DNA of 64,000 bases from an uncultured Candidatus Saccharibacteria bacterium (GCA_965231075.1 OZ246412.1:321587-385586); one strand, 5' to 3'. Shown: positions 7,425 through 59,866, counted from the stretch's first letter. Notes: generated by a model not told the origin, from the sequence alone. A program made the numbers and translations.

Positions 7425-7440
7425 TTATTATATCATAAAC

Positions 7441-7544: not shown

Positions 7545-7556
7545 TCAAATAAAATT

Positions 7557-7630: not shown

Positions 7631-7638
7631 GAAAAATC

Positions 7639-7797: not shown

Positions 7798-7870
7798 AAA
7801 AATAAAATTTATTAATTATTAATAAACTTACTTTATTATACAGCTAAAATAATAATAAAATCAAGCACAA

Positions 7871-7906
7871 ATAAAAAAATCGTCTAATAGACGATTTTTT
7901 TATTTC
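7871..7906 (-). terminator. Hairpin terminator downstream of the 16S 3' end
   Basis: AATCGTCTA-AT-AGACGATT followed by T7ATTT on the minus strand (and A-run/T-run on both sides). Confidence 0.55.
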
Positions 7907-8042
7907 GAATTCTTTATGGTTTTCCCGATACTTATTATTTGTTTAGTACAAATAATTAAAAAACTTTTTATGTTACTGCCTTATCGGCAAATAATCGACT
8001 CTTACTTAATAAATTTTATTTACTAAGTAAAAATATTTTCCA

Positions 8043-9503
8043 TCCACAGGTTCCCCTACGGATGCCTTGTTATGACTTCACCCTAGTCACCGAATTTACC
8101 TTAGGACTCTGAAATCAGAGCACGTCAGGTACTCCCGGCTTCTCTGGTGTGACAGGCGGTGAGTACAAAGCTTGAGAACGTATTCACCGCAGCGTAGCTG
8201 ATCTGCGATTACTAGCGATTCCGGCTTCATGGGGTCGAATTGCAGACCCCAATCCGAACTGGGGCCGATTTTGATGAGATTGGCTCCATCTTACGACTTG
8301 GCGACTCATTGTATCGGCCATTGTAGCGCCTGTGTTGCCCAGGGTATCAAAGGGCCATGCTGATTTGGCGTCATCCCTACCTTCCTCCTCGTATCACGAG
8401 GCAGTCTTGTCTGACACTTATAACAGACAACAGGGGTTGCGCTTGTTACCCGAATTAACGGAGCAACTCACGCCACAAGCTGACGACAACCATGCAGCAC
8501 CTGTTCTAGTGTCCTTGTAGAAGACCCGACTTTCATCAGGCTTTCACTAGAATTTCAAACCCTGGTAAGGTTCTCCGCTTACCGTCGAATTAAACCAGAC
8601 GCTCCACCGCTTGTGCAAGCTCCCGTCTATTCCTTTGAGTTTTAGTCTTGCGACCGTACTTCCCAGGCGGAGTACTTAACGCGTTAGCTTCGTCACCTGA
8701 AGGGTCGATACTTCAGACAACTAGTACTCATAGTTTAGGGCGTGGACTACAAGGGTATCTAATCCTTTTTGCTCCCCACGCTTTCGTCTCTCAGGGTCAG
8801 AAATGCACCAGCCAAATGCCTTCGCCTTTGGTATTCCCTAAGGTATCAACGGATTTCACCCCTACTCCTTAAGTTCTATTGGCCTCTCACACTCTCTAGT
8901 CTGACCGTTTCCCCTGCAGTTTCGATGTTGAGCATCGAAATTTAACAGAAGACGTATCAAACGCCCTACAGACGCTTTACGCCCAGTAATTCCGGACAAC
9001 GCTTGGGGTACTCGTATTACCGCTGCTGCTGGCACGAGTTTAGCAACCCCTTATTCATAGAGTACACTCAAAAATTGCTCCTCTATAAAAGTACTTTACA
9101 TCCCGAAGGACTTCTTCATACACGCGGCGTCGCTCCATCAGACTTTCGTCCATTGTGGAAGATTCTCGACTGCAGCCTCCCGTAGGAGTAAGGCCCGTAT
9201 CTCAGTGCCATCGTTGGGGAACACGCTCTCACGCCCCCTACCCGTCATCGCCTTGGTAAGCCATTACCTTACCAACTAGCTGATAGGACGCAGGCCACTC
9301 TCTCACCATCTTATCTTGCGATAAGACTTTACTCTTGCGAGACCATCGGAAATTATCTTGCCTTTCGGCAAGTTATGTCCGAGTCAGAGGGATGTACCTA
9401 CGTATTACTAACTCGTTCGCCATGGGTCTAAACCCATTCGACTTGCATGCCTAATCCACGCCGCCAGCGTTCGTCCTGAGCTAGGATCAAACTCTCAATA
9501 AAG
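8043..9503 (-). rRNA. rrs: 16S rRNA, complete, about 1.46 kb
   Basis: 5' end AGAGTTTGATCCTAGCTCAGGACGAACGCTGGCGG (reverse complement at about 9470-9503). 3' end ...GTCATAACAAGGCATCCGTAGGGGAACCTGTGGATGGA (8043-8080). The 530 loop reads GTGCCAGCAGCAGCGGTAATAC (9014-9035), carrying the C-to-A change in the 515F site reported for Patescibacteria. Confidence 0.9.
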
Positions 9504-35546: not shown

Positions 35547-37994
35547 TTACCTTAGATCCAATTCTTCCGGAAGGGTGTCGGCTCCTCGAGAATAAGAAAT
35601 TTTGTCAGAAATTTTTGATCTCTCAAAAATCTCTTTTTCTACAACTGCTTTATCTCGACCATATTTCAGACGAGATAGTTCTTTAATTTTCTCGGCGATC
35701 AGTGGATCACCCTTGGCTGGCGAGTTTGCCTTCATATTAAACGGCACACTAACCATATTATTAATTAATAATTTGACGTAAGCATTAAAATTATCAATAT
35801 TTACGATATCTTGTTGATCAAAAACTGGTTCGAATTGTTTAACCAAAAATTCTGCGTCTTCCGCGCCGACTCGATAAACTGCCATACTGCCAACATTGCC
35901 AAAAACCGCATCCTTAATCTTGTCTTCTAATTGTCCAATGAATTGATGTGCAAGAATTAAATTCAATTTAAATTTTCTTGCCTCAGATAATATTGTGGCA
36001 ATAGTATCGGTTGTAAAATTTTGAAATTCATCAATATAAAGATAAAAATCTTCTAGATTTTTGGCGTTTGTATCGACCCTAGAGAACGCTGCCATCAGAA
36101 ATCTACCAACAATGATTAAACCCAACAAATAACTGTTTATATCTCCCAGGCGCCCTTTCGATAAATTAGCTAAGAAAATTTTCTTTTCGTCCATGATTTT
36201 CCTAAAATCAAAAGCGCTTTTTTGTTGACACAAAATTGGGCGCATAATATCATTGGCCAAAAACACATTTGTTTTAGAGGTAATATAAGGAACCATGTTT
36301 GCCAAAGACGCTTCTCCTCCGGCTTTCTCAGCCTCCTTCTCCCAAAAATCTTTAACTACAATATTGTTGGTTTTGGAAAGCTTGTATTTCCTGAATTGTG
36401 GATCAGCCAATACTTTAGGAACCTCTAAAAGCGTTGCGCCAGACGCAATATCGTCCATAACTAGAAGTATTGCGCCTCGCATATATTGTTGAAACATTGG
36501 ACCCATTGCTTCTAATGACTCTGGAAAAACTTTTCTAAAAATATTGAGCATTTCATTAGAGAGAAATGTTTTCTGTTCGGGAAAATTGGGATCGTATTCA
36601 AGCATATTCAAACCCATCGGTCTTTCTGTGTCCCCAGGATTAAAATAAATTACATCTTCGGCACGTTCTGGTGGGATCATCCCCAAGAGTTCTTCAACGT
36701 CCTTGCCATGAGGATCGATATAACAAACCCCTTTCCCTGCCAAAATATCTTGCTTGATCATGTTTATCGCCAAAGTGGTTTTACCGGTACCAGTCTGTCC
36801 AATAATGTAAAAATGTCTGCGTCTATCGTCATCGGTCATCCTAATTTCTGTTTCTTCTCCTCTGAAAATGTTTTTACCAAGAATCACCCCCTCTTTGGGC
36901 AAAACTGTTGGTGGACATGATTCTTTTGACTTAAGCCACTTCAATTTCGGTGAACTTAAATTAGTTAGTGGAAAATGAAAAACACTAGCAATTTCCTCGC
37001 TATTTAAAACTAATCTCTGTTTACGTTCAAATAACCTAAACGAAAAACTAAAGAAAAGTTTTTTTAATCCACTCTTTTTCATTTTTTCTAGTTTGAAAGA
37101 GTTTAAATTTGGCGAACTAAACTGCTGAAACGAACCACTGAGGTGCGACAATAATTCATCCGACCTGTCTTTGGTTTTGGAAGAAAACAAGAGACGAATA
37201 TTAACTTCAAATCCAGTTTTAGAAATTTTTGATTGCAAACTTTTAATTATCTCTTCGTCAACGGGCGATGTTCTCGGTTGAACAACTGGCGCATCTTTTT
37301 CTTGTTTTTTCTTGGGCTTGTTTTTGAGCGCGTCCTTAAAACTTTGACCCTGATTCATCTTTTGGATTATGTTTAATCCAAATTTTGCCCAATTTTTTCC
37401 CGCCACCTTCAAAACGATCTGCACCGCTCCACCTTCACCGTTTTCCGCTATTTTACTTAGGGCTGTAGAAAGATTCTCTAGTGGATCAATCTCTAATTCT
37501 TTGTAGGTTTTAATTGGCAAAACACTATTCTTGTCTAATTTCAAAAATCCGCCCGATGATTCTCCTTCGGGATTAAAAATATTGTAGTCTTCTGTTTTTT
37601 GTACGATCGCTTTGGGATAGAATCCATAAATTTGTTTTTCTAGAAAATTATCATATTTCTTAGGCACGGCAACATAAAAAGAAATTTCTGAGCCAGAAAA
37701 TGGAACTGCCATTTCTAAAACAATATAAGGTTGGCCATATTTTGCTTTTTTTTCGTACAGTGCGCCCAGACTCGACAAAAACTGCTCCATTACAGCAATT
37801 CGATTCTTCCTTTCGTCCGCAGATAAATCTTGTTTGGCTTCTCTGGGGATTCTAACCAAAAATAGGCTCATGTCTAGGGCCTTGATAATTATTTTTCTTC
37901 CTCGCGATTTATCGATAATAAAAATCAAAAACAACCCTCCCAACAAGAGAGCTATGAAACCCGACACGATATATACGAGCTGCATCGTAGTCAT
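35547..37994 (-). CDS. 815-aa membrane-anchored P-loop ATPase of the HerA/FtsK/VirD4 (DUF87 / type-IV coupling-protein-like) clade. Fused version: membrane N-domain plus ATPase.
   Basis: N-terminal TM helix; Walker A IIGQTGTGKTT then YIDPHGKD; Walker B FYLYIDEFQNF; ILAHQF. The N-domain (1-390) is homologous to the separate ORF at 47115-48386; the ATPase is homologous to the ORF at 45574-47118. Confidence 0.7.
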   Translation of the reverse strand: MTTMQLVYIVSGFIALLLGGLFLIFIIDKSRGRKIIIKALDMSLFLVRIPREAKQDLSADERKNRIAVMEQFLSSLGALYEKKAKYGQPYIVLEMAVPFSGSEISFYVAVPKKYDNFLEKQIYGFYPKAIVQKTEDYNIFNPEGESSGGFLKLDKNSVLPIKTYKELEIDPLENLSTALSKIAENGEGGAVQIVLKVAGKNWAKFGLNIIQKMNQGQSFKDALKNKPKKKQEKDAPVVQPRTSPVDEEIIKSLQSKISKTGFEVNIRLLFSSKTKDRSDELLSHLSGSFQQFSSPNLNSFKLEKMKKSGLKKLFFSFSFRLFERKQRLVLNSEEIASVFHFPLTNLSSPKLKWLKSKESCPPTVLPKEGVILGKNIFRGEETEIRMTDDDRRRHFYIIGQTGTGKTTLAINMIKQDILAGKGVCYIDPHGKDVEELLGMIPPERAEDVIYFNPGDTERPMGLNMLEYDPNFPEQKTFLSNEMLNIFRKVFPESLEAMGPMFQQYMRGAILLVMDDIASGATLLEVPKVLADPQFRKYKLSKTNNIVVKDFWEKEAEKAGGEASLANMVPYITSKTNVFLANDIMRPILCQQKSAFDFRKIMDEKKIFLANLSKGRLGDINSYLLGLIIVGRFLMAAFSRVDTNAKNLEDFYLYIDEFQNFTTDTIATILSEARKFKLNLILAHQFIGQLEDKIKDAVFGNVGSMAVYRVGAEDAEFLVKQFEPVFDQQDIVNIDNFNAYVKLLINNMVSVPFNMKANSPAKGDPLIAEKIKELSRLKYGRDKAVVEKEIFERSKISDKISYSRGADTLPEELDLR

Positions 37995-38004
37995 TAATTT
38001 GAAT

Positions 38005-38376
38005 TTATTTTAATTTTTCATTAGCAACTAATTGATTGTAAAAATAATCAATCAAAGCATCGTGAAATTCGTCTAACAAATAAGGATTATCGAGATTTCG
38101 AGCAATATTTATCGCTTCAATTACCCCTTTGTCCATAGCCATTTGTACCAATAACTGGATCTGTCTTTCCTTGGGTTCGTCTTTTAATTTTTGGGTTGTT
38201 TGCGCGATAACTTGTTGTTGGTTTTGCGTAATTGGCTGTGCGTTAGAGATTTTTTCATTAACCGCTTCTTTTAAAATTTCTTTTTGTTTTTCCACGCTTA
38301 ATTCGCCCTCTTGATTATCCATTTGTCTTAAGGCTTCGGTTTTTTTGTTTTCAAAATTTTTAAATATTTCTTCCAT
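38005..38376 (-). CDS. Hypothetical 123-aa helical protein upstream of the fused ATPase
   Basis: ORF only; Q-rich middle region. Confidence 0.35.
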   Translation of the reverse strand: MEEIFKNFENKKTEALRQMDNQEGELSVEKQKEILKEAVNEKISNAQPITQNQQQVIAQTTQKLKDEPKERQIQLLVQMAMDKGVIEAINIARNLDNPYLLDEFHDALIDYFYNQLVANEKLK

Positions 38377-38417
38377 ATGTTTTTAATTATATCACAAAAA
38401 TGATACAATAAAAACAT

Positions 38418-40190
38418 ATGAAAAAATTATCACCCATTATAGCAATAGCTTGTGTTTTTTTAATGCTTGTTTTGGCGACAATCAGTCAGCAACAAGAATC
38501 GGCAATTATGGACGAAGTAGCGCACATTCCAGCTGGATATTCTTATCTCACCCAAAATGATATGCGCTTAAACCCAGAACATCCTCCGTTACTTAAAGAT
38601 CTATCTGCAATCCCCTTACTTTTTATAAACAACATTAAGTTTCCTATGGGATTGAGTGCTTGGACATCGGAAATTAATAGCCAATGGGATTTTGGTTTTA
38701 ATTTTTTATATAGGTTTGGCAACGATGCCGATAAAATCGTTTTTTGGTCCAGAATACCAATGTTGTTGTTGTTAATTCTGTTAGGATATTTTGTCTATCA
38801 ATGGACAAAAAAATTATACGGCAAGATTCCGGCATTATTCGCAATAATTTTATTCGCTTTTTCGCCAACATTTATCGCTCATGGTCGATATGTAACAACC
38901 GATGTTGGTGCGGCTTTTGCATTTTTTTTCGCCTCTTATTTTTTTATTAAGTGGTTAAGAAGTCAAACCAGCAAAAATCTATTTATTGCCGGCATTGCTT
39001 TTGGCGTTGCTCAATTAATAAAATTTTCTTTGATTTTACTAATTCCCTATTTTGGAATTTTAATTTTGATCTATGTTTATATTAAGTGGCGAGAAGATAA
39101 AAAATTCTGGAAGAACTTTATTAAATATGTTTGGAAATTTGTTTTAATTATGATTATCGGCTTTGTTCTTGTTTATCCGGTATACGCATTTCACGTCGCG
39201 GGCTATCCCGTTGAAAAACAACTTTCTGATACCAAATTTATAGCCTCTACATTTCCTCTTAAGCCCGCTGGAGATCTTGTGGTATGGATGTCTGAACAAC
39301 CAATATTGAGGCCGTATGCTCAATATACAATGGGATTGTTTATGGTATTTATTAGAGCAACCGGCGGTAACACAACTTTTTTCTTAGGCGATGTTACCAA
39401 CAAGGGATGGAAAAGCTACTTTCCGATAGTTTATGCGATTAAGGAACCGTTGGCGCTACACATTCTCACGATTATCGCTCTTTTGGTTCTAGCGGCTGGA
39501 GGGACAATAATTGCATGGAAAAAGATATTTAAATCATTTCCGCAATTTTTGAAAAACAATTTTACAGAAATTGCCATGTTAATTTTCTTAGCGATTTATT
39601 GGGGGGCCAGTCTAACCAGCAATCTCAATATCGGCGTTAGACATATCTTACCCACGTTTCCATTTGTTTACGTTCTAATTTCTGGTCAAATTAAAAAATT
39701 GTTTGAAAAAATCCACAACAAAAAAATAATTACCATCGTTTGGATATTAATTATTGGATTAACTGGTTGGTATGTTGTATCTTCGCTTTCTTCTTTCCCT
39801 TATTATTTGTCTTATTTTAACGAATTAACCGGTGGTAGTAAAAATGGATATAAATATGTTACCGACTCTAATCTTGATTGGGGTCAGGACCTGAAACGAC
39901 TTGCCAAATGGGTTGAGGAAAACAAAATCCCCAAAATTTATGTAGATTATTTTGGAGGCGGAATTCCCAATTATTATTTGTGGGATAAAGTTGAAAATTG
40001 GTCGGGAAACAACAGTCCCGAAGAAGCCAAAGGAAAATGGATAGCGGTCTCGGCAACGTTTAAGCAACAAGGCCAGGCATTGCAAACAAAAGGCTGGACA
40101 CAAAAAACTGACTTCTATTTCTGGCTTAATCAATACGAACCCGTAACGGTCATCGGTAATTCTATTTTTGTATATTATATAGATAAATAA
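38418..40190 (+). CDS. GT-C fold glycosyltransferase (PMT/ArnT-like, GT39/GT83 family)
   Basis: N-terminal loop-1 DE motif (AIMDEVAH), at least 11 TM helices, C-terminal soluble domain. Confidence 0.6.
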   Translation: MKKLSPIIAIACVFLMLVLATISQQQESAIMDEVAHIPAGYSYLTQNDMRLNPEHPPLLKDLSAIPLLFINNIKFPMGLSAWTSEINSQWDFGFNFLYRFGNDADKIVFWSRIPMLLLLILLGYFVYQWTKKLYGKIPALFAIILFAFSPTFIAHGRYVTTDVGAAFAFFFASYFFIKWLRSQTSKNLFIAGIAFGVAQLIKFSLILLIPYFGILILIYVYIKWREDKKFWKNFIKYVWKFVLIMIIGFVLVYPVYAFHVAGYPVEKQLSDTKFIASTFPLKPAGDLVVWMSEQPILRPYAQYTMGLFMVFIRATGGNTTFFLGDVTNKGWKSYFPIVYAIKEPLALHILTIIALLVLAAGGTIIAWKKIFKSFPQFLKNNFTEIAMLIFLAIYWGASLTSNLNIGVRHILPTFPFVYVLISGQIKKLFEKIHNKKIITIVWILIIGLTGWYVVSSLSSFPYYLSYFNELTGGSKNGYKYVTDSNLDWGQDLKRLAKWVEENKIPKIYVDYFGGGIPNYYLWDKVENWSGNNSPEEAKGKWIAVSATFKQQGQALQTKGWTQKTDFYFWLNQYEPVTVIGNSIFVYYIDK

Positions 40191-40287
40191 AAAAATATTC
40201 TCACTGAGACAACTTCGGAAACCGACTGCAGTCGGTTGAGAATTAGTGCGCCATTGACAATTTGCAATGGCGACACGTGTCGACATG
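40188..40287. repeat. Copy B of the roughly 100-bp structured intergenic element
   Basis: TCTCACTGAGACAACTTCGGAAACCGACTGCAGTCGGTTGAGAATTAGTGCGCCATTGACAATTTGCAATGGCGACACGTGTCGACATGAG, lying between convergent genes. Confidence 0.7.
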
Positions 40288-40298
40288 AGAATATTTCT

Positions 40299-40907
40299 TT
40301 ATTTATAGTAAATACGATTTTCGATCCGCAAATCAATATATTGGAGACTCATTCGATCTTCAATTTTTTCATCTAGAACAACTTTTAGCGATAAAAGTTG
40401 TTTTTTAATTTCTTGTTTTAGGCCAAATAAGACATACCAGCTTTCATTGGTCACAACTCTTAATTTATTTACAGGGTAACTGTCGATATCAAAACTAACA
40501 GCACTCAAACCAATTTCTGAAGATAAATAATTTTTTATTTCTGTGATCATATTAATCGTTTCGAGATTTAAAACTTGATCATATAACTTAATTTCTTTAT
40601 CAGAGTAATCTTTAATCAATAAAACTAGTCCTCCGCTTGTTCTGGGAGCGTCTTCAAAAATAACCCCTTGTTTGTCAACGTAAAAACACTTATTTTCCTG
40701 CAAAGAATTCTCTTTGCAAAAAATTCCGATTTGTTCGTATTTTTTAATATCCTCTCTTTTTGTTTGAAAATTTAAATAGGGGATCAAAATGTAAATTAAA
40801 TACAGTGTTAATAAAATCAAAACAATCAGAAGAATTTTTTTTCTTTTTTTTCCTCTCGGCCTGCGCTGATATTGATTTAAATCGATTTTTTTTCTCTTCT
40901 TAAACAT
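40299..40907 (-). CDS. Single-pass membrane protein, possibly FtsQ/DivIB-like (POTRA)
   Basis: Basic N-terminus, TM helix, about 150-aa periplasmic domain; follows alr. Confidence 0.3.
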   Translation of the reverse strand: MFKKRKKIDLNQYQRRPRGKKRKKILLIVLILLTLYLIYILIPYLNFQTKREDIKKYEQIGIFCKENSLQENKCFYVDKQGVIFEDAPRTSGGLVLLIKDYSDKEIKLYDQVLNLETINMITEIKNYLSSEIGLSAVSFDIDSYPVNKLRVVTNESWYVLFGLKQEIKKQLLSLKVVLDEKIEDRMSLQYIDLRIENRIYYK

Positions 40908-42025
40908 TATTTGATTATTCTGGGAATTAATGGATTGATTCTCGACACGATCTCATAGTTTATTGTCCCGACTTTTTGCGCCACCTCTTCTGCGATAACG
41001 AACTCTTTTCCTTGCCCACCAATTAAAACTACCTCATCTTCAATCTGAACGTTATTAATGTGGGTTACATCTACAATCATCATATTCATGCAAATCCTGC
41101 CCAAGACCTTGCATCTTTTATTGCGAATTAAAACATTGCCGACTCCAGACAACTTGCGATCGTAACCATCGTAATAACCAACGGGGATCACCGCAACCTT
41201 TGATTTTTTGAATACTTTTTCCGTTAAACCATAACCGATTGCTGCCCCGGATTTGATGTTTTTTATTTGTGCAACTTTTGTTTTCCAACTTAACACCGGC
41301 TCTAAAGTCAACTTTTTGTGTTCGTTTTTTGCAGAAACAAATGTTTCTTTAGATGGCCAAAGCCCGTAAATTCCAATTCCCACTCTCACTAAATTAAAAT
41401 AGGTTTCCGGAAATAAAATTGTTGCAGCCGTACAGGCAGTATGTTTCACGGGAATTGTGGTGTTATTTCTTTCCAACAGATTTACAACTTCTTTAAATTT
41501 GTTGAGTTGTTTTTCGGCAAAGCTATAATTTGTTGTGTCCTCAATATTTGCAAAATGAGTATAAATTCCTTCGATTTCAATGCGTTGATATTTTTTAATT
41601 AATTTTACAAAATCCAAAACTTGATCTTTTTCTATACCCTGCCTTGAAGTTCCGGTTTCGATTTTTAAATGAACCCTGATCTTTTTATTGATCTTCCCCA
41701 ATTCAATAATTGTTTCTTCGTTGTAGACAACCTGTCTGAAACCGTATTTTACGACATCCTTTAATCTCGATTTTAAAGTATAACCCAATATTAAAATCGG
41801 GGAATTAATCCCCGCTTTTTTTAATCTTATCGCCTCGTTAATCGAGTCAACTCCAAGCCATGTTACGTTGCTGATTTTCAATATTTTTGCTGTTTCAATC
41901 AAACCGTGTCCGTAGGCATTCGACTTCACAACTGCCATTAAATTTACATTTCCGATTAGTTTTTGAAATTGACGAATATTATTCTTGAGAGCGTTTTTAT
42001 TTATCTCCACCCAAGTTTTGTGCAT
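40907..42025 (-). CDS. alr: Alanine racemase
   Basis: PLP site AVVKSNAYGHG. Confidence 0.85.
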   Translation of the reverse strand: MHKTWVEINKNALKNNIRQFQKLIGNVNLMAVVKSNAYGHGLIETAKILKISNVTWLGVDSINEAIRLKKAGINSPILILGYTLKSRLKDVVKYGFRQVVYNEETIIELGKINKKIRVHLKIETGTSRQGIEKDQVLDFVKLIKKYQRIEIEGIYTHFANIEDTTNYSFAEKQLNKFKEVVNLLERNNTTIPVKHTACTAATILFPETYFNLVRVGIGIYGLWPSKETFVSAKNEHKKLTLEPVLSWKTKVAQIKNIKSGAAIGYGLTEKVFKKSKVAVIPVGYYDGYDRKLSGVGNVLIRNKRCKVLGRICMNMMIVDVTHINNVQIEDEVVLIGGQGKEFVIAEEVAQKVGTINYEIVSRINPLIPRIIK

Positions 42026-42028
42026 AAA

Positions 42029-43252
42029 TTAACTAATTTTTTTAATTCCAATATATTTCTGAAGAACTTTGGGAACTTTAATTGTACCGTCTTTTTGTTG
42101 ATAGTTTTCAATAATCGCAATTAATGTTCTGCCAATAGCGAAAGCTGTACCATTTAAAGTGTGCACTAAATTTAGTTTTCCCTGACTATCTTTATATTTA
42201 ATGTTTAATCTTCTGGCTTGAAAATCGGTGCAATTTGACGTTGAATGTGTTTCTCGATACTCGTTTTGTCCCGGCATCCAAGCCTCAATATCATATTTCT
42301 TGGCTGCTGGATCACCTAAATCCCCCGTACAAATATCAATCACGCGGTAAGGAACTTCTAGTTTTTGCATTAACTTTTCTTCCATCGACAAAATTAGTTC
42401 ATGAGCTTTTGCAGATTCTTCTGGCTTACAAAATATAAACATTTCAACTTTATCAAATTGATGAACTCTCAAAATTCCTTTCGTGTCTTTGCCGTAAGAA
42501 CCGGCTTCGCGCCTAAAGCAGGTTGAAAAAGCGACGTATTTTTTGGGTAAATCTTTTTCTTCGAATGTCTCGTCGGCATGAAGTGGTCCGATTGATTGTT
42601 CCGATGTCCCAGTTAAATATAAATCATCTTTATCAAAATAATAAATTTCATCTCCGCCGCGCTCAACATAACCCATCGCCTTCATCATTTCTGGCTTAAT
42701 CATTACTGGCGGGACGACCGGAATAAACCCTTCTTTTCTAGTAATATCCATTGCTAATTGTATCAACCCGAACTCCATTAGCGCTAAATCCCCCTTCAGA
42801 TAGCCAAATCTTGCCCCAGAAACCTTTCCTGCCCGCTTAACATCGATCACGTCCAGTGTTTCTGCGATTTCCATATAATCTTTCGGTTGAAACGAAAATT
42901 TTGTTTTTTTACCCACTTCTCGTAAAATTTTGTTTTCGGTTTCATCTTTGCCAACAATAACATCATCTAGTGGTGGGTTGGGTATTTTGGAAAACATTTC
43001 TTTGAATTCTTTTTCCGCTTTTTCTAATTCCGGCTCCAATTCTTTAATTTTGTTTTTTAATTCTTTAGCCCGCTCGATCTGATCTTTGCCTAATTTTTTC
43101 TGTTCAGCTCTCAATCCTTCGATTTGTTGAATTAACTCTCGTCTTTTTTTGTCTAATTCTAAAACTTCGTCAACATTAACCTTGGCGCGCTTATTTTCAC
43201 ATGCTTGTTTAATTTTTTCCGGATTTTCTCGAAGTAATTTTATATCGATCAT
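42029..43252 (-). CDS. serS: Seryl-tRNA synthetase
   Basis: N-terminal coiled-coil arm plus class II core. Confidence 0.85.
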   Translation of the reverse strand: MIDIKLLRENPEKIKQACENKRAKVNVDEVLELDKKRRELIQQIEGLRAEQKKLGKDQIERAKELKNKIKELEPELEKAEKEFKEMFSKIPNPPLDDVIVGKDETENKILREVGKKTKFSFQPKDYMEIAETLDVIDVKRAGKVSGARFGYLKGDLALMEFGLIQLAMDITRKEGFIPVVPPVMIKPEMMKAMGYVERGGDEIYYFDKDDLYLTGTSEQSIGPLHADETFEEKDLPKKYVAFSTCFRREAGSYGKDTKGILRVHQFDKVEMFIFCKPEESAKAHELILSMEEKLMQKLEVPYRVIDICTGDLGDPAAKKYDIEAWMPGQNEYRETHSTSNCTDFQARRLNIKYKDSQGKLNLVHTLNGTAFAIGRTLIAIIENYQQKDGTIKVPKVLQKYIGIKKIS

Positions 43253-43346
43253 ATCGTTAAAAAATTAACCTAATTGACCTAATTAGTCTAATTAACCTAA
43301 ATTGGGATTTGATTAGAATAATTAGAGTAATTAGAAATTAGAATAA
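43253..43346. repeat. AT-rich degenerate tandem repeats upstream of serS
   Basis: CCTAATTGA / CCTAATTAG / TCTAATTAA / CCTAAATTG units, then AATTAGA x4. Confidence 0.5.
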
Positions 43347-43898
43347 TTATAAATTTAATTCTGTTGCAATTCCCTTCATGGCTTTCAGACCAATTTCGAC
43401 AAATTGTTCTAATGTTAATCCTGCATCCGAACATTTATTAATTATATCTCTGTTTGCGCCTTTAGCAAATCCTTTTTCTTTAAATCTATTTAAAACATTT
43501 TCCGTTGTTACTTCAGTAATCTTTTTGCTTGGCAGAACCAAGACTGAAGCAATAATTAATCCGGTTAATGGATCTACCGGCAATAAAACTTTACCCATCA
43601 AGCTTTCTGGTTTTAATCCGTGTGCTTCGTTGTGGGTTTTTACGGCTTCGCAAATTTCTTTGTCTAGTCCCGCATCCTCTGAAATCTTTGCACCCACAAG
43701 GGAATGTTGAGATAAATCGTCTTTTGTTGTTTCGTAGTCAACGTCATGCAATAATCCTGCCAGTCCCCACCGCTCCAAATCCTCATTGAAGTGCTCCGCA
43801 AATTCTCTCATACACGCTTCAACCGCCAAACAATGTTTAACTAGGTTTTTATTTTGAACCTTTTCGTTTAATAATTTTACTGCTTCTTCTCTGGTCAT
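43347..43898 (-). CDS. HD-domain phosphohydrolase
   Basis: H...HD motif (KHCLAVE...LLHDVDYE). Confidence 0.6.
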   Translation of the reverse strand: MTREEAVKLLNEKVQNKNLVKHCLAVEACMREFAEHFNEDLERWGLAGLLHDVDYETTKDDLSQHSLVGAKISEDAGLDKEICEAVKTHNEAHGLKPESLMGKVLLPVDPLTGLIIASVLVLPSKKITEVTTENVLNRFKEKGFAKGANRDIINKCSDAGLTLEQFVEIGLKAMKGIATELNL

Positions 43899-44009
43899 AA
43901 TATACTTATTTCTTTTTACTTTTTAAATGGGCGAGTCCGAAAAATCGTCGGGTTGGCAGTGGGATCATTATTATAATTATAAAATATAGGCGAGATTTTT
44001 AGGACTTGC

Positions 44010-45506
44010 CTATTTAATCTCTTTCTTTGGTCTCATTAACGGGAAAATAACGGTTTCGCGAATCGGTTTACCCTCTAAAAATGCAAACAACCTTTCAGAA
44101 ACACCAAAACCACAGGTCGGTGGCATGCCATATTCTAGGGCTTCCACAAAATCATTATCGGTCATCTGCGCTTCTTCGTCTCCACCCTCTCTTAGTTTTT
44201 GTTGGTCGTTAAATCTTCCCAGTTGATCAATTGGATCATTTAATTCCGAAAATCCCTTGCCTAGCTCTGACCCCGCCAAAATAACCTGAAATCTTTCCAC
44301 TAAGTTGTTGTCCTTTTCCATTCTTTTGGCTAACGGTTCCATGGTTACTGGCACGTTAATTAAAAATCCCGGACCAGCAATATCTTTTCGGCAATATTTC
44401 CATAAACCGTCAATTGCTCTAGTGATATTAAATCCTTTCTTGTCGTAATCAACTTTCAATTCATTCAATTTGTTTTCTATTGTTTTTAGATCAGAATTTA
44501 ATACATTGATTCCTGTCATTTTTTTTATTATCTCAATATAATCGTAGATTTCCCATTTTTTAGCAAAATCAATATTGAATCCCTTAATTTCAAATTTGGT
44601 TTTACCATAAACTTCTTTAGCAATTTTCTTATACATTTCTTCGATTAATTTCATTCCGTCATTATAATCGGCAAATGCCCAATAAAATTCCATTTGGGTA
44701 TAATCCTGTAAGTGTTCTGCGTCCATGCCTTCGTTTCTAAAAATTCTGCCAATTTCAAAAACTTTCGGATATCCCGCAACAATTAATCTTTTAAGCCATA
44801 ATTCATCAGAAATTCTTAAATAAACATCTAAATCTAAGGCGTTATGATGAGTGATAAATGGCCTGGCCTCTGCGCCACCGGTTGTGTTTTCTAAAACCGG
44901 AGTTTCAACCTCCATAAATCCTTTTTCGATTAAAAAATTTCTCATTGTTTGCCAGAATTTAAATTTTCTCACAAACATTTCTTTTATCTCTGAATTGATT
45001 AGAATATCTAAATATCTTTTTCGTAGTTTCTCTTCAGTGTCTTCAAGTCCATACCATTCACTGGGAATCGGCATTATCGATTTGGTTAAAATTCTCCAAC
45101 TCAAGACTTGAAGGGTTTGTTCGCCTTTTTGAGTTAAAAACAATTTTCCTTTTGCTTCAATAAAGTCCCCCAAATCAATGTTGTTGATAAATAAATCATA
45201 ATTTGTATCACTGATTAGATCTTTTTTGAAATAAAGCTGGATTTTGGCATAACCGTCCTCAATGTGACAAAAAGTTGAACCTCCGTGCCCTCTTAATGAA
45301 CGCACCCTACCCACCAAGGTTATTTCTTTGCCTTTTTGCACAACCCCGTTTTTGTCTGGCTTGCCAGCAAGTTTTTTAAAACCATCTATTGCTTCGGCGT
45401 TGGTGTGTGTAAATGAAACACCAGCCGTAAACGGATTCATTCCGGCTTTTTTTAGATTTTCTAATTTTTGTATCCTAACTTTTCGGATTTCTTCTAAATT
45501 GTCCAT
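44010..45506 (-). CDS. lysS: Lysyl-tRNA synthetase (class II)
   Basis: OB anticodon domain plus class II core. -10 TAAGAT lies 6 nt before the ATG (leaderless). Confidence 0.85.
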   Translation of the reverse strand: MDNLEEIRKVRIQKLENLKKAGMNPFTAGVSFTHTNAEAIDGFKKLAGKPDKNGVVQKGKEITLVGRVRSLRGHGGSTFCHIEDGYAKIQLYFKKDLISDTNYDLFINNIDLGDFIEAKGKLFLTQKGEQTLQVLSWRILTKSIMPIPSEWYGLEDTEEKLRKRYLDILINSEIKEMFVRKFKFWQTMRNFLIEKGFMEVETPVLENTTGGAEARPFITHHNALDLDVYLRISDELWLKRLIVAGYPKVFEIGRIFRNEGMDAEHLQDYTQMEFYWAFADYNDGMKLIEEMYKKIAKEVYGKTKFEIKGFNIDFAKKWEIYDYIEIIKKMTGINVLNSDLKTIENKLNELKVDYDKKGFNITRAIDGLWKYCRKDIAGPGFLINVPVTMEPLAKRMEKDNNLVERFQVILAGSELGKGFSELNDPIDQLGRFNDQQKLREGGDEEAQMTDNDFVEALEYGMPPTCGFGVSERLFAFLEGKPIRETVIFPLMRPKKEIK

Positions 45507-45529
45507 GATTTTATCTTAACAGATTTCTG

Positions 45530-45580
45530 AAAATAAAAAAAGAGGGGCGCCTAAGGCGCCCCTCTTTTTATTTTTATTCT
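45530..45580. terminator. Bidirectional terminator between lysS and the ATPase gene
   Basis: A-run, AGAGGGGCGCC-TAA-GGCGCCCCTCT, T-run. Confidence 0.7.
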
Positions 45581-47118
45581 TTTTTATCACCCACTGCTTT
45601 TTTGATTGCCTCGCGGACACTGGCTAGATCGATTTCCATTTTTTTCTTGACCTGTGATGGTGGGGGCATTTGTGGTTTTTTTTCTCGTTCTTTTTGTAAA
45701 CAATTCGCACAGTAAACTGGTCTTTTTCCGTCGGGAGCAAAAGCAACTTTAGTTTTCTTGCCACAATTTGCGCAAATAGTTTCGAATCTTTTCCCGCTTT
45801 TTTCCTCCTCGGGCTCGAGTCCTTCATTCCATCTCGCAATCTTTTCTTCAACAATCTTTCTCGGCACAGCATATCTTTCTCGAGAAATTTTAATTGTCGT
45901 TTCTTTATATGATTTATCAGGAACTGGAGGAATTTTGGTCGTGGAAGCACTGAAAGCGCGCGAAGCGAATCCATTAACCATTAATTTCAAATAGATATTA
46001 TAATTGGGAATATTGACTAAATCATCAATGGTAAATGCTGGCAGAAATTCTTTTTCCAAAAATTCCGCATCGTCGGCACCCACCCTGAATGTAATTATTG
46101 TTCCCACGTTTCCAAAAATTGCGTCTCTTACTTTTGTATTTCTACCCTTATCACCCATGGTTTCAAGTTGCGCAACATATTGGTGGGCAAGGATTAAACA
46201 TAATTTATATTTTCTGGCTTCTGATAATGTGGTTGCAAACGCATCAGTAGCAAAGTTTTGAAATTCATCAACATAAAGATAAAAATCCTTTCTTTCTTCT
46301 TCGGCCATATCGGCTCTTTCCATGGCTGCTAATTGTAATTTGGTAATCACTAACGCGCCCAATAACTGTGAAGCATCTTCTCCAATTTTGCCCTTGGGCA
46401 AATTAACAATCAAAATCTTTTGATTGTCCATTATCTCTCGCATATTAATCGAAGATTTGACTTGCCCGATAATATTTCGAATAAGTGGCGTAGTAATGAA
46501 TTGACCAACTTTATTTTGAATTGGTGCCACTGCTTCTTCTCTGAATTTGTCGGGATATTTGGCAAATTCATTATTCCAAAAAGATTTAACTCCTGGATCG
46601 GTAATTTTTTCTACTACCTTTTGTCGGTAATCTTTGTCAGCCAATAAACGATTAATGCCTAAAAGCGTTGCTCCGGGATATTCCAACAGCGCTAAGATTG
46701 AATTTCTTAAAATGTACTCCATTCTTGCCGACCAAACATCCGGCCAAATCTTTTTAAATACGCCCATTAATCCCGATGCAATCAGATAGCGATATTCTGA
46801 ATCCACTTTTTCCATAATATTAAAAGTTATGGGAAAATCAACATCAGCAGGATTAAAATAAATTACGTCATTTACCCTGTTTGAAGGAATATAATCCAAC
46901 ATTTTTTCAGCAAACTCACCGTGTGGATCAACAACTGCCAAACCACTTCCATTCTGAATGTCTTGAATCGCCATGTTCTTTAATAATTCTGACTTACCCA
47001 CACCAGTTTTTCCAATAATATAAGTATGCTGACGCCTGTCTTTGGTTTTAATACCAAATCTGACCTTATGATTACGAAAGCTGGTTTCACCTAGGATTGT
47101 AATATCTTGTTCACTCAT
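45574..47118 (-). CDS. 514-aa soluble HerA/VirD4-like (DUF87) P-loop ATPase with a C-terminal zinc ribbon; split version
   Basis: IIGKTGVGKSE...VVDPHGEF; FYLYVDEFQNF; ILAHQY; C-terminal CANCGKK...YCANC. Confidence 0.7.
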   Translation of the reverse strand: MSEQDITILGETSFRNHKVRFGIKTKDRRQHTYIIGKTGVGKSELLKNMAIQDIQNGSGLAVVDPHGEFAEKMLDYIPSNRVNDVIYFNPADVDFPITFNIMEKVDSEYRYLIASGLMGVFKKIWPDVWSARMEYILRNSILALLEYPGATLLGINRLLADKDYRQKVVEKITDPGVKSFWNNEFAKYPDKFREEAVAPIQNKVGQFITTPLIRNIIGQVKSSINMREIMDNQKILIVNLPKGKIGEDASQLLGALVITKLQLAAMERADMAEEERKDFYLYVDEFQNFATDAFATTLSEARKYKLCLILAHQYVAQLETMGDKGRNTKVRDAIFGNVGTIITFRVGADDAEFLEKEFLPAFTIDDLVNIPNYNIYLKLMVNGFASRAFSASTTKIPPVPDKSYKETTIKISRERYAVPRKIVEEKIARWNEGLEPEEEKSGKRFETICANCGKKTKVAFAPDGKRPVYCANCLQKEREKKPQMPPPSQVKKKMEIDLASVREAIKKAVGDKKE

Positions 47119-48386
47119 ATAATTGGAAGATCGGTTGGCGGACTACCCTTCTTCGCTCCGATCTTAGATAGTTTTTCGGCTTCAACAAATGTTCCTGGAA
47201 TATGAAAAATTGTCGCCAATTCTTCGGTATTAAAGATAAATCCTCTGGTTTTAATTTTATGTCCAGGAAAAACTCTTTTTTTAAACAATCCAACAAAAAA
47301 TCTTTTTTGACCAATTTCTCTTCTCTTTTTAAATATTTTCCCTCTGCCCGGAGTAACTTTTTTATTGGCCTTAAATCCATTTAAATTTAAAGTATTAAAT
47401 TGTCTAAAAAATCCTGCCGCAACAGTGGGCTTGTCTTTATTAAAAATTTCTTTCGGCGCCCAATACATAAATCGGATCATGGTCTTAAAACCAATTTTGG
47501 CGATGTTTTGTTCTATCGCTAAGACAATCTCCTTTTGTCCAGGTGTTAGAAATGGAGTTAGCGCTTTTACTTCTTCTTTCTTTTTTTCTCCTTCTCCGCC
47601 AAAACCAAAAAGTTCAGTTATTCCAAATCCGAGTGCGGTAAGCCAACTTTTACCTTCCTCTACAATCAATAATCCTTTTTTCTTGTCTGCTTTTACCTCT
47701 TTGCCAACTAACTTACCAACCAACTTTTCTCCTGCTTCCTTCCATTTATCATCTGCGGGATTAATGAGAATGTGTATCCCAATACTCTCTCTTGGGTCTA
47801 GACTACTCAAAAATTCAAATAGACCAGCGATTGGATCGGTTCTTTCTTCTTCCTCTTTGTCTTCGAAAAACACCGGATAAGTTCTTATAGGATAAGCATC
47901 GGGTTTGTTTAAAATCAGTTCCGTGCCCCAGGCATCAAAATCTTTGGTCGGCGTACCTGCCGGGATGTCGGAAACATAATCTTCTGCCTCAATGATTTCG
48001 ATTTGTGGATATTGTGCATATAAATGTGATTCAATTAAATTTCTGTATTTGGATTCGGTTCTGATATAAAAACGAATCTCTCCCCCGTGTCCTAAAATTT
48101 CAACACTAAACCAAGGCGGTAATGTGCCCTTTAAATATCGATCTTTTTTCTTGGGATTCTTTTCTGTGGCATGAAGACCAGCGAAAAACTGTTCCATTGC
48201 CTTGGGAGTTTTAATCACCTCGCGAGGAAATTTTATCTCTAGCATTATCCATTTTAGTCCCATTAAATACTTCTTAGTCATATAGTTAAGCCAGTATTTA
48301 TTTAAAAATAAAAAAAGAGCTACCGGTGCAATAATCCACCAAAAGCTCGAAAATATATCTTTATAGATATTTAAAATTTCCTCCAT
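47115..48386 (-). CDS. 423-aa membrane-anchored protein homologous to the N-domain of the fused ATPase at 35547-37994
   Basis: N-terminal TM helix. Collinear blocks LEIKFPREV / LVRIPREA, YPQIEI / YPKAIV, NTEELATIFHIPGT / NSEEIASVFHFPLT. ATGA overlap with the downstream ATPase. Confidence 0.65.
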   Translation of the reverse strand: MEEILNIYKDIFSSFWWIIAPVALFLFLNKYWLNYMTKKYLMGLKWIMLEIKFPREVIKTPKAMEQFFAGLHATEKNPKKKDRYLKGTLPPWFSVEILGHGGEIRFYIRTESKYRNLIESHLYAQYPQIEIIEAEDYVSDIPAGTPTKDFDAWGTELILNKPDAYPIRTYPVFFEDKEEEERTDPIAGLFEFLSSLDPRESIGIHILINPADDKWKEAGEKLVGKLVGKEVKADKKKGLLIVEEGKSWLTALGFGITELFGFGGEGEKKKEEVKALTPFLTPGQKEIVLAIEQNIAKIGFKTMIRFMYWAPKEIFNKDKPTVAAGFFRQFNTLNLNGFKANKKVTPGRGKIFKKRREIGQKRFFVGLFKKRVFPGHKIKTRGFIFNTEELATIFHIPGTFVEAEKLSKIGAKKGSPPTDLPII

Positions 48387-48433: not shown

Positions 48434-49474
48434 CTAAGCAGCAACGTACTTACCGTCTTCCATTCTTCTGACTTTCGGAGAACGGTGAAGATTTAAAACA
48501 ATTGTATTTGGTCTCACCTGTCTTTTTTGTAGAACCAAATCAACAATCTCTTTCTTGGTTAACGGTTTTTTGTTTTCTGATAAAACCTTATAAATGACAT
48601 CTTCTACGGTTCCTGATTCATATCCCCATTCGTTAAGTGCATAGGTTCCGCGTCCAATTAAAATAAATCTCGGATCTTTGATTAGTTCGTTGTGAACTGT
48701 TTGGGTATATGCTGGCTTATCTACGAAGGTTTTGTTAATCAATTCTGTGATTGCTGTGAAGTGTTTGGGATTACCGTCTTTCTTTAATAATAAATAAGCT
48801 CGATCCTTCACTCCTTGTGGAGTAATGTCTGGCCATAAACTCAGGCCAATTTCGCCAAAAATATTTTTATTAATATCTCGTGCAATCTCTAAGACAACAC
48901 TAAACATTTTGGGCGGAATATTAGAATGTTTTTTAGAAAGTAAATCCATAACCTCCGTTTCATGAAAAACTTTATTATTCTTTTTGAAATGATCGATTAG
49001 AAAATCAACTATCTTTTGCGCCCTTTCTTTGGCGGTATCGTGACTAATCCAGTAAGGATGGAATTTATTGTCCTTAACCACTCTTTTAAATGGCTCTCCT
49101 ATGGTTAACGTTAAATAAACCTGACCTCTTATTGGACGTAATTCTTTTGTTCCAGTTGCTAAAGAATACAAATAATCTTCACCCATAATGTGTCCGTGTT
49201 CGGCAAATAGTTCATTCAAAAAATCAAAAGCGGCATTAAATAATGGTAACACTTTGTCGGATTTTAATATTTTTAATCCGTTTTCTTCTAATTGTCTCAC
49301 CCGTTCTCTGGTTATGCCATGATCTTTACCGATCGCCTCTAATGTTTCAGTTTTACCATCTTTTAAGCCAAATCTGCGCTCAACAACTTCCCGAACCCTA
49401 GGATTGGTTAGGTAATTGATGGCTTTTTCAATTTTTTTAGAAATATCTTTAGAAAAAGTTGATTTTTTTGACAT
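48434..49474 (-). CDS. Sigma-70 region-4 HTH domain protein with a large C-terminal domain
   Basis: REVVERRFGLKDGKTETLEAIGKDHGITRERVRQLEENGLKILK, the classic region 4.2 helix-turn-helix. Confidence 0.6.
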   Translation of the reverse strand: MSKKSTFSKDISKKIEKAINYLTNPRVREVVERRFGLKDGKTETLEAIGKDHGITRERVRQLEENGLKILKSDKVLPLFNAAFDFLNELFAEHGHIMGEDYLYSLATGTKELRPIRGQVYLTLTIGEPFKRVVKDNKFHPYWISHDTAKERAQKIVDFLIDHFKKNNKVFHETEVMDLLSKKHSNIPPKMFSVVLEIARDINKNIFGEIGLSLWPDITPQGVKDRAYLLLKKDGNPKHFTAITELINKTFVDKPAYTQTVHNELIKDPRFILIGRGTYALNEWGYESGTVEDVIYKVLSENKKPLTKKEIVDLVLQKRQVRPNTIVLNLHRSPKVRRMEDGKYVAA

Positions 49475-58072: not shown

Positions 58073-59866
58073 TTATATCGCAGTTTTGTCTGCACCTTTG
58101 GGATACCAGTTTAATTCTGATTTATTAATTGTGAAAATCGATTCTGATTTTGCGCCTGAAGATAAAAACTGGTTAGCGGTTATATTTAACCAGTATAATT
58201 TCCCTGTGTCCGCACCGGTTACTTCTAATTCATAAACTTTTGGCGAATCAGAATATTTGTAATAATTTGAAGTCTTGAATGCATCCCGAACCTGTGGTTT
58301 TACTGTTTTAATACTTTTCCAACCCCCTAGATGTCCATACATATTAAAAATTTCTGGGTTTAGAAATAATCTCTTATATCCAAATTGATTAATAATAAAA
58401 ACATCAAAATCGCCTTCGGCTCTAATTAAATCACCCTCCTTTAATCCATAATCTTCTGGTTTGGTCTGAATTGTAGTATCAGGTAGTTCGGTTGGTTCAT
58501 CAAAAATAGTTGTGTAAGCCGAAAGAGTAAATTGGGTAGCTGGATCATTATTCGTAAAACCACTATTGCGAGACTGATTTGAAACAATAATCGTTACAGA
58601 ATCAAAGTTATCCCTGAAGTTGGGGATTTTTATCGTGCCTTGTTGGTTGATTAGATTTAAGTTTCCAATAATTGGTCCCTTGGATTGATCAATATAATCG
58701 ATTACATAAAGAACGTTAAAATTTCCGCCATTAATTTCTCCTTCAAATTCCAATTCCAGGTCTTTGGTGGTGGTGCCACGCTCTTGGCGATTGGTAAATT
58801 TATACCAATGTGGCGCCCAATCTTTAACATCTTGAGAAATATTGATTACATTTGCCGAGACAATTCCGTAGCTTATTGGCGAAACAAATAAATTTCCTTT
58901 TAAATAGGGGTTTTTGTATCCATATATTCCTCCCAGTAAGATTTTATCGTTTAAATAGCTAGCAACTGTCCATTGATTGAATATTTTTGAAAAATTAACA
59001 TTGTATCCTTTATCAATTAAGGCTTGCTCTAAACTAGCAATTCCGGTTTTGTTGTTTTGCGCAGTCATGCCAATAATTTCTTCTCCGTATTGTTCGGCAA
59101 TATAGTGTCCCAAAACATTAACTGATGGATAATCAATTCTTTCTCCCTTCCATTCGGTTAACGAATCAAAGGGATAAGATAAAAAATCATCAACCCTTCT
59201 TTCTAAATTACTTCCCACATAATCGCTATCATAACCACAAAGTGTTGGAGCGTATTCACTTCTTAATTCGTTAAGCCAAATATCGTCTCGAACTCCCCTT
59301 TCGCGCTCTTTCTGGTTCCAGCTAATTAAGTGTTGCATTTCGTGAGCCAGTAAACTATAAATCAGTGGATTGGTAATTTGATTGGCATTTAAATAAATCA
59401 TCTCGCGCATATTTGACCTTGGTTCGTGGGTTTGATTTTTTTCGTCTTTCTCGTTGAAATATCCTCCTGCGGTCGCATCAAGCTTGGTTAATAAAATTGT
59501 TATCTTGGCATCGTCATCGATTCCCGGGTTCCATTCTGAACCAAAAAAATAAGTCAACGTAGGATAAATTATTTGATCAAATTCCTCTGCCAATAAATTA
59601 ATATCACCCAAATAATCCTGTTGTTGTAACAGCGTTAAATTGTCCCAATATTCATCTTCTATATAAAAATAAGCATTGTCAGAAATTTTTCTCAAAGTCG
59701 CTGAAGTTTCTATGCGATTATTATAATCGTATTCTGGATCTAGATAGAATCCTACGTTCTTATTTAAATCATCAATAGCGAAAGCACACTGAAAGAAAAC
59801 AATAAAAACCCCACCCGAAACAAGTAAGGTTAAAACTATTCTCTTTTTTATTGAAAAGAATTTCAT
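58073..59866 (-). CDS. Secreted HExxH zinc-metallopeptidase-like protein
   Basis: Signal peptide/TM helix; LLAHEMQHLISWNQ. Confidence 0.5.
   Translation of the reverse strand: MKFFSIKKRIVLTLLVSGGVFIVFFQCAFAIDDLNKNVGFYLDPEYDYNNRIETSATLRKISDNAYFYIEDEYWDNLTLLQQQDYLGDINLLAEEFDQIIYPTLTYFFGSEWNPGIDDDAKITILLTKLDATAGGYFNEKDEKNQTHEPRSNMREMIYLNANQITNPLIYSLLAHEMQHLISWNQKERERGVRDDIWLNELRSEYAPTLCGYDSDYVGSNLERRVDDFLSYPFDSLTEWKGERIDYPSVNVLGHYIAEQYGEEIIGMTAQNNKTGIASLEQALIDKGYNVNFSKIFNQWTVASYLNDKILLGGIYGYKNPYLKGNLFVSPISYGIVSANVINISQDVKDWAPHWYKFTNRQERGTTTKDLELEFEGEINGGNFNVLYVIDYIDQSKGPIIGNLNLINQQGTIKIPNFRDNFDSVTIIVSNQSRNSGFTNNDPATQFTLSAYTTIFDEPTELPDTTIQTKPEDYGLKEGDLIRAEGDFDVFIINQFGYKRLFLNPEIFNMYGHLGGWKSIKTVKPQVRDAFKTSNYYKYSDSPKVYELEVTGADTGKLYWLNITANQFLSSGAKSESIFTINKSELNWYPKGADKTAI

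Follow-up and report, generated by a model that had tools for sequence, protein, structure and literature searches.

We propose, at a probability of about 0.55, that two loci in the window (the whole stretch of 64,000 nt analysed here, from an uncultured Candidatus Saccharibacteria bacterium; GCA_965231075.1 OZ246412.1:321587-385586) are ancient paralogs of a distinct subfamily of VirD4/TrwB-like type IV coupling proteins (T4CPs) with a DUF8128 N-terminal half, acting as a membrane-anchored hexameric translocase that most likely serves Patescibacteria's type IV secretion system (T4SS). One paralog is fused, a single protein of 815 amino acids (aa) designated F815; the other is split into an N-domain protein of 423 aa (N423) and an ATPase of 514 aa (A514). 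The N-domain already figures in Pfam as a DUF, and the ATPases are counted in one published survey, in the passages drawn on here; the paralog structure, synteny, plasmid ancestry, likely fused ancestor, and probable VirB4-like N-domain are new here.

A preliminary description of this DNA had reported three open reading frames (ORFs) of 815, 423, and 514 codons and had read the first as collinear with the other two. All three are present on the minus strand (Table 1), and both halves aligned significantly in BLASTP: residues 39-366 of F815 with 43-421 of N423 (26% identity, E = 2e-28), and residues 370-789 of F815 with 7-427 of A514 (40% identity, E = 2e-103). The N-domain similarity, on whose significance the earlier claim had been made to depend, is thus clear. 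The reported ATGA coupling of the 423-aa and 514-aa genes is a 4-nt overlap read directly in the sequence. This is a true fusion/fission pair: the polypeptide is cut precisely where the two domains meet, behind a conserved K-G-x-P-P-x-x-L-P motif, and the two genes are translationally coupled. The same motif ends most split N-domain proteins of relatives (67/80 by a loose pattern) and marks the domain junction in the fused proteins. The ATPase motifs read as described, namely GQTGTGKT, IDPHG, YIDEFQNF, and LAHQF in F815 and GKTGVGKS, VDPHG, YVDEFQNF, and LAHQY in A514; Walker A of A514 ends in Ser, not Thr, and Walker A and Walker B are intact in both paralogs. The zinc ribbon reported at the C-terminus of A514 was recovered at residues 444-478 as zf_Tbcl_2 (Pfam, E = 6.6e-14) and TIGR04272 (E = 4.8e-14); among relatives it occurs in 33/59 complete split ATPases and in 0/120 fused ones. 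No third copy of either paralog was found in the window by tblastn.

The placement of the ATPase in the FtsK/HerA/VirD4 clade was right, and Pfam, NCBIfam, the PDB, and Foldseek narrow it to the VirD4/TrwB branch of coupling proteins. In Pfam, A514 matched TrwB_AAD_bind over residues 25-347 with 48.6 bits (cut-off 20.5; E = 7.2e-13), TraG-D_C with 31.2 bits (cut-off 22), and T4SS-DNA_transf with 27.3 bits (cut-off 20.1); F815 matched TrwB_AAD_bind above the cut-off, with 25.2 bits. DUF87 was above its cut-off but weak in both ATPases (E = 2.2e-5 and 1.2e-7), and its match in F815 covered the P-loop region 392-430 only. FtsK_SpoIIIE gave no match at E <= 0.01, and the VirB4 families AAA_10, P-loop_TraG, and CagE_TrbE_VirB matched neither ATPase. 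The best NCBIfam matches of the ATPase were TraD, conju_CD1115, and CedD, and its only sequence relatives in the PDB were the T4CPs DotL and TrwB. The P-loop motor carries the all-alpha insertion typical of coupling proteins; in the AlphaFold2 model of F815 it appears as a helical block (residues 473-602) between Walker A and Walker B. In Foldseek, the ATPase half of F815 matched TrwB with a target-normalised TM-score of 0.60-0.67 (root mean square deviation ~5 A), and Cag-beta as well. A profile of the fused family aligned with the pSK41 coupling protein TrsK over 281 columns in hhalign, versus the P-loop only for the VirB4 protein TrsE.

The window proteins share with VirD4, TrwB, TraD, DotL, and Cag-beta an FtsK/HerA P-loop motor with an inserted all-alpha domain and, apparently, N-terminal membrane anchoring. 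T4CPs typically have two transmembrane (TM) helices, whereas F815 and N423 have one and A514 has none and would need N423 as its anchor. Unlike T4CPs, the family has a DUF8128 domain of ~330 residues between anchor and motor, and its two members in the window are chromosomal, duplicated, and without relaxase or T4SS genes nearby, one of them being split in two genes and equipped with a zinc ribbon. HerA and FtsK/SpoIIIE belong to the same ASCE P-loop superfamily, and HerA structures were among the Foldseek matches. In contrast to HerA, however, the N-domain is predicted to be alpha/beta (helices and mixed sheets) and not a beta-barrel, and there is only a single TM helix, unlike in FtsK/SpoIIIE, which are marked by a multi-pass N-terminal membrane domain and a gamma domain. 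No NurA-like family was matched among the neighbouring proteins scanned.

The N-terminal half had been called a membrane N-domain without an obvious characterised homologue. Hydropathy analysis supported the membrane part of this, with one hydrophobic TM helix at the N-terminus of F815 and of N423 (Table 1) and none in A514, but there is no multi-pass domain, and the rest is alpha/beta. The DUF8128 domain is predicted to be cytoplasmic, because basic residues follow the helix and the ATPase of the fused protein must be cytoplasmic. The second part did not stand: the domain is catalogued in Pfam as DUF8128 and has clear homologues outside the phylum, in ATPases of Bacillus and Shouchella plasmids. 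The precomputed annotation of a database protein identical to F815 comprises PF26449 (DUF8128), PF10412, and PF01935, and all listed homologues of N423 and F815 carry PF26449; N423 was unmatched in our local Pfam copy, which is without the PF26449 model, and the DUF8128 assignment is that of the precomputed annotation. An exhaustive HMMER search gave 1867 clusters of N423 homologues at 50% identity, and the fused form is also a large conserved family. Our literature search found no publication on DUF8128/PF26449 or on DUF87 in Patescibacteria.

An AlphaFold2 model of N423, built from a 137-sequence alignment, had a predicted local distance difference test (pLDDT) score of 88.9 and a predicted TM-score (pTM) of 0.85. 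Its top 13 PDB matches in Foldseek were all TrwK, the VirB4 of plasmid R388 (E from 3e-5, probability 1.0), and the next family, BBE-like oxidases, followed at E = 2e-3. The full-length model of F815 (pLDDT 89.9, pTM 0.64) matched TrwK over ~900 alignment columns (E = 4e-15). The N-terminal domain of TrwK comprises residues 15-400 (PMC9259494), a layout like that of F815. Lower-ranked matches (chlorite dismutase, Cas6, regulatory domains) suggest a domain of common alpha/beta sandwich modules. A VirB4-like fold of the N-domain is accordingly regarded as probable but not established on these models; if true, it bears on how the two ATPase families of the T4SS diverged.

Relatives outside the phylum occur on plasmids. 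In a tblastn search of 72,556 plasmids, the matches of N423 were ~885-aa proteins annotated as "DUF87 domain-containing", aligned in their N-terminal part and encoded on small plasmids of Bacillus and Shouchella, for example WP_248290882.1 on NZ_CP012476.1 and WP_345805471.1 on NZ_CP154917.1. The fused-family profile aligned with the Shouchella protein over 649 columns and both domains (hhalign; Prob 100%, E = 9.5e-47), and the profile of the split N-domain alone matched the plasmid protein with Prob 99% and E = 2e-18. The plasmid proteins have the same fused architecture as F815; they differ in lacking the N-terminal TM helix and in carrying a long acidic C-terminal tail. No experimental characterisation of them was found in the literature searched. 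In the plasmid operon the ATPase comes first, followed by the relaxase-like Replic_Relax protein, several "conjugal transfer" proteins, and VirB4 (AAA_10, E = 8e-116), and then by a large membrane protein and a lytic transglycosylase/C40 peptidase. We infer that the ~885-aa protein is the coupling protein by position, because it is the only ATPase in the operon besides VirB4. Plasmid pLS20 was ruled out as a source of these homologues, since the T4CP there, p48, is a protein with two TM helices in a differently arranged operon (PMC8557374). A phage origin was also ruled out, as N423 had no match in 50,697 phage records. As a separate observation, MOB-suite types NZ_CP154917.1 and NZ_CP012476.1 as "non-mobilizable" despite a complete-looking T4SS operon (DUF8128-type ATPase, Replic_Relax, VirB4, VirB6-like protein, cell-wall hydrolase); the mobility class of these plasmids may be mis-called, their relaxase and coupling protein being atypical.

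In a neighbour-joining tree of the motor domain, the fused and split forms of Patescibacteria were sister clades, with the plasmid proteins outside both and TrsK further out. Because of this topology the duplication appears to be old, within or at the base of the phylum, and because the outgroup on plasmids is fused, the fused form is by parsimony probably ancestral. The family may have descended from the coupling protein of monoderm conjugative elements and become a core chromosomal gene in Patescibacteria, where it would have gained its membrane anchor and been duplicated; the split ATPase gained its C-terminal zinc ribbon.

The pairing of N-domain and ATPase extends far beyond the window. 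A scan with the DUF8128 alignment, one genome per species, gave at least 580 relatives, of which the best 80 loci were analysed; they span Terry-, Portnoy-, Moran-, Lipton-, Magasanik-, Niyogi-, Doudna-, Colwell-, Nealson-, Buchanan-, Kerfeld-, and Uhrbacteria. An independent, unlinked occurrence of the two families in most related genomes would have counted against the preliminary description. Instead, in 63/78 assessable loci of other species the DUF8128 gene is followed, at a distance of 0-670 bp, by the start of a gene for an A514-type ATPase. A homologue of the 346-aa helix-turn-helix (HTH) protein that precedes the split pair in the window lies directly upstream in 62/75 assessable loci, and SecF lies within 3 kb upstream in 38/62, the usual order being SecD-SecF-HTH-DUF8128-ATPase. 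With the near-identical relative L006 set aside, identity to the window proteins was 45-68% for the split ATPase versus 31-43% for the N-domain, and the neighbourhood is retained in relatives down to this 31-43%. In the 15 loci without an adjacent ATPase, six of the eight downstream ORFs scanned encode YceG/MltG (L037, L043, L047, L063, L071, L073). Six further exceptions (L057, L060, L065, L078, L081, L084), labelled as Magasanikbacteria in four cases and automatically as Gammaproteobacteria in two, have a longer DUF8128 protein (~460-490 aa) after SecDF and no adjacent HTH or ATPase gene.

The window is core chromosome of a Patescibacteria (candidate phyla radiation, CPR) bacterium. It carries genes for DnaE, ThrRS, a MiaB-MiaA fusion, GatB, TyrRS, DnaX, Alr, SerRS, LysRS, SecDF, SecA, and 16S rRNA, and the named homologues all come from metagenome-assembled genomes of Patescibacteria, Parcubacteria, or Portnoybacteria. 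GC content is 33-45% in the window and a uniform 33-37% across the region of the two loci, which lie ~9 kb apart in an arrangement that is the same in relatives at 57-74% identity. The split locus has the conserved housekeeping order SecA-SecD-SecF-HTH-DUF8128-ATPase-LysRS-SerRS. At the fused locus the order is PMT, small protein, fused gene, GtrA, DnaX, with GtrA and DnaX downstream of the fused gene, a protein of ~125 aa directly upstream, and the PMT-type glycosyltransferases on the other strand.

Two neighbours are candidate partners. The HTH protein before the split pair had been recognised as a sigma-70-region-4 protein, which Pfam supported (Sigma70_r4, E = 7.6e-10) while adding a HARE-HTH domain. 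The latter is akin to that in the delta subunit of RNA polymerase (TIGR04567, 31.7 bits, below the cut-off), and instead of a simple regulator the protein could be a factor associated with RNA polymerase. The 123-aa protein upstream of F815 matched no Pfam or NCBIfam family; an orthologue occupies this position in each of four related loci (L001, L003, L086, L087), and the C-terminal motif DRQ..L...G..A...YL.D.FHD.L.D is invariant. Small DUF5663 proteins precede the homologue in more distant relatives. Elsewhere in the window, a 597-aa ORF (58073-59866, minus strand) without a Pfam match is conserved in L001 and L003, where its counterparts, 595 and 599 aa long, lie upstream of SecA by a few genes.

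Table 1. Positions in the window of the two paralogs, their domains and motifs, and the neighbouring candidate partners.
Feature	Position	Strand	Basis or location
F815, fused paralog, 815 aa: N-terminal TM helix, DUF8128, T4CP-type ATPase	35547..37994	-	ORF, translation
F815 single TM helix, residues 1-32	37899-37994	-	hydropathy
F815 DUF8128 domain, residues ~40-366	36897..37877	-	BLASTP to N423
F815 ATPase domain, residues ~370-790	35625..36887	-	BLASTP to A514, Pfam, Foldseek to TrwB
F815 Walker A, GQTGTGKT	36777-36800	-	sequence
F815 Walker B, DEFQNF	36015-36032	-	sequence
N423, split paralog N-domain protein, 423 aa: TM helix ~10-29, DUF8128, C-terminal KKGSPPTDLPII tail	47115..48386	-	
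A514, split paralog T4CP-type ATPase, 514 aa, without TM helix	45574..47118	-	Pfam, NCBIfam, hydropathy
A514 Walker A, GKTGVGKS	46990-47013	-	sequence
A514 C-terminal treble-clef zinc ribbon	45685-45789	-	Pfam, NCBIfam
ATGA stop/start overlap from N423 gene to A514 gene	47115..47118	-	read from sequence (...CCA ATT ATA TGA / ATG AGT GAA...)
123-aa soluble protein, candidate partner	38005..38376	-	directly upstream of fused paralog
346-aa protein, Sigma70_r4 (N-terminal) and HARE-HTH (C-terminal half), candidate regulator or partner	48434..49474	-	47 bp upstream of split pair

In the mechanism we favour, the proteins would form membrane-anchored hexameric rings, by analogy with TrwB and VirB4, and the TM helices may hold a DUF8128 ring between membrane and motor, the place taken in VirB4 by the N-terminal domain. 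Driven by ATP hydrolysis, the rings would pass a macromolecule to a conduit in the membrane. DNA or a nucleoprotein complex would be the most likely substrate, and protein a less likely one, in view of the descent from coupling proteins, the zinc ribbon, and the HTH protein next to the split pair. The conduit would most likely be the VirB4/VirB6 T4SS of Patescibacteria, a role favoured because this T4SS is otherwise without a coupling protein. The conserved C-terminal PPxxLP tail of N423 probably docks, in the split version, onto the otherwise soluble A514 and anchors it. Patescibacteria are a large and poorly understood part of bacterial diversity, living attached to hosts and importing most of their building blocks, and a coupling-protein-like motor that the survey data place in ~96% of these genomes, mostly as two copies, and that is retained in core neighbourhoods, is a strong candidate for a function central to this lifestyle. 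What emerges for the family is a defined anatomy, two orthologous types, two candidate partners (the HTH protein of 346 aa and the 123-aa protein), and, on Bacillus plasmids, a relative amenable to experiments.

In the survey in question, Quinonero-Coronel et al. (2025; PMC12102498) analysed 3,035 genomes of Patescibacteria and identified 5,713 VirD4-type T4CP homologues in 2,918 of them. These are almost certainly the same proteins as the window family, because about two per genome, rarely near virB4, match two paralogs in housekeeping contexts. The passages of the paper on which we draw describe the Patescibacteria T4SS as of the monoderm conjugation type, report only 109 relaxases, and contain no description of the DUF8128 N-domain, fused and split types, synteny, or plasmid relatives (PMC12102498).

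Several observations weigh against service to the T4SS. In the survey passages, only 148/5,713 T4CP homologues lie near virB4, VirB4 was found in 2,417 genomes, fewer than the 2,918 with T4CP homologues, and in S. epibionticum T4SS genes were essential but the T4CP homologue was dispensable (PMC12102498). This low virB4 linkage, wider spread, and non-essentiality fit an exapted, T4SS-independent role, and the survey authors write that exaptation "cannot be ruled out" (PMC12102498). The partner genes that the preliminary description had proposed to look for, VirB4, VirB6, and pilin, were, together with TrsD and relaxase genes, found neither in the window nor in 985 kb of related Patescibacteria loci, by tblastn of low sensitivity. 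The ATPases missed the NCBIfam equivalog cut-offs of TraD, VirD4, and conju_CD1115 widely (46-48 bits versus 250-650). For the N-domain, the query-normalised TM-score to TrwK/VirB4 was only 0.32-0.39, the 137-sequence DUF8128 profile found nothing among PDB sequences at E <= 10 (hmmsearch), and hhalign gave no match to pSK41 TrsD or to a 16-sequence alignment of TrsE-type VirB4. With both hhalign comparisons blank, profile comparison does not support DUF8128 as a TrsD/VirB4 N-terminal homologue, and its VirB4 link is structural only. It also counts here that hexamer formation, substrate, and tail docking are inferences only. The non-essentiality in S. epibionticum could be explained by redundant paralogs, or by an essential T4SS role that is independent of the T4CP, such as pilus formation; redundancy presupposes that S. 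epibionticum carries both paralogs, and the passages of the source paper mention one homologue there.

These observations lead to a second reading, which we consider possible and nearly as likely as service to the T4SS: an exapted housekeeping translocase, derived from a coupling protein but independent of the T4SS, working as a membrane DNA pump (in chromosome handling, or in nucleic-acid import for nucleotide scavenging) or as a motor for envelope or secretion processes encoded nearby. Both loci stand in deeply conserved Sec/aminoacyl-tRNA synthetase/DnaX housekeeping synteny, although gene order in reduced genomes may persist for historical, not functional, reasons. According to the survey passages, T4CP homologues occur in 96% of genomes versus 80% for VirB4, and there are almost no relaxases in the phylum (PMC12102498), but draft genomes at >50% completeness can miss VirB4. 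The TM anchor of the CPR proteins, which plasmid relatives lack, and the zinc ribbon of the split form would suit such a role. Against it, there is no positive evidence for a specific alternative substrate or partner, and the Patescibacteria T4SS is without another coupling protein. A bolder and, in our judgement, unlikely version holds that DUF8128 T4CPs keep a VirB4-like N-domain, being intermediate between VirB4 and VirD4, and that a plasmid-derived motor was domesticated, anchored, and duplicated to give a near-universal, T4SS-independent translocase. If true, this would explain the wider spread than VirB4 and the embedding in core operons, and candidate roles would be the import of host nucleic acid or membrane DNA handling in organisms unable to make nucleotides.

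The architecture raises the further question of whether these are VirB4-like assembly ATPases, energising pilus or channel assembly rather than recruiting substrates. TrwK of R388 likewise has an N-terminal domain of ~400 residues and a C-terminal ATPase in ~800 aa; the N-domain of ~350-400 residues, the C-terminal motor, the total of ~815 aa, and the predicted fold match VirB4, and TrwK/VirB4 was the top Foldseek match of both the N-domain and the full-length models. Even the split has a parallel, since the VirB4 N-terminal part is a separate gene in pGO1/pSK41-type systems (TrsD + TrsE), an arrangement that the survey passages describe as known in monoderm systems and in Patescibacteria. We nevertheless consider this reading improbable. 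The motor matched T4CP families and none of AAA_10, P-loop_TraG, and CagE_TrbE_VirB, all of which are present in the true VirB4s compared; unlike VirB4, DUF8128 is without sequence or profile similarity to TrwK, TrsD, or TrsE, its TM-scores are low (0.3-0.4), and comparison with TrsE-type VirB4 gave the P-loop only, or nothing. Moreover, DUF8128-type ATPases coexist with true VirB4: a separate bona fide VirB4 is encoded in the same plasmid operon as the homologues, and Patescibacteria, in the survey passages, have a VirB4 of their own. Least credible of all is a mobile element or an anti-phage defence system around a HerA/FtsK-type ATPase, a role for which the preliminary description had left room. 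The ATPase domains of F815 and A514 do match the PADLOC profile for mad8 (MADS system) along most of its length (E ~1e-16), with weak HerA matches besides, and there are relatives on Bacillus plasmids. N423, however, had no PADLOC match, no defence partner genes, integrase, relaxase, or repeats lie nearby, and N423 is absent from the phage records searched. The neighbours are SecDF, SecA, LysRS, SerRS, Alr, DnaX, and TyrRS, and both loci stand in conserved housekeeping synteny of the Patescibacteria chromosome, retained down to the N-domain identities given above and uniform in GC. A defence system is disfavoured, as the mad8 match is to a generic ATPase only and no MADS partner genes are present. 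Conversely, MADS itself appears to use a related coupling-protein-like ATPase in mad8.

Two features of the window lie apart from the coupling-protein paralogs. A 634-aa ORF (18063-19967, plus strand) is an apparent fusion of a MiaB-like radical-SAM methylthiotransferase (UPF0004 + Radical_SAM) with MiaA (IPPT), and a single polypeptide would thereby cover two successive steps in modifying A37 of tRNA. On the minus strand of positions 1-9502, tRNA-Ile and tRNA-Ala (7471-7630) come after the 16S rRNA gene (8028-9502), and the 23S rRNA gene starts only at 383. The rRNA operon is interrupted or unlinked, because ~7 kb with six ORFs (222-446 aa, on both strands, 735-7424) separates the tRNAs from the 23S rRNA gene.

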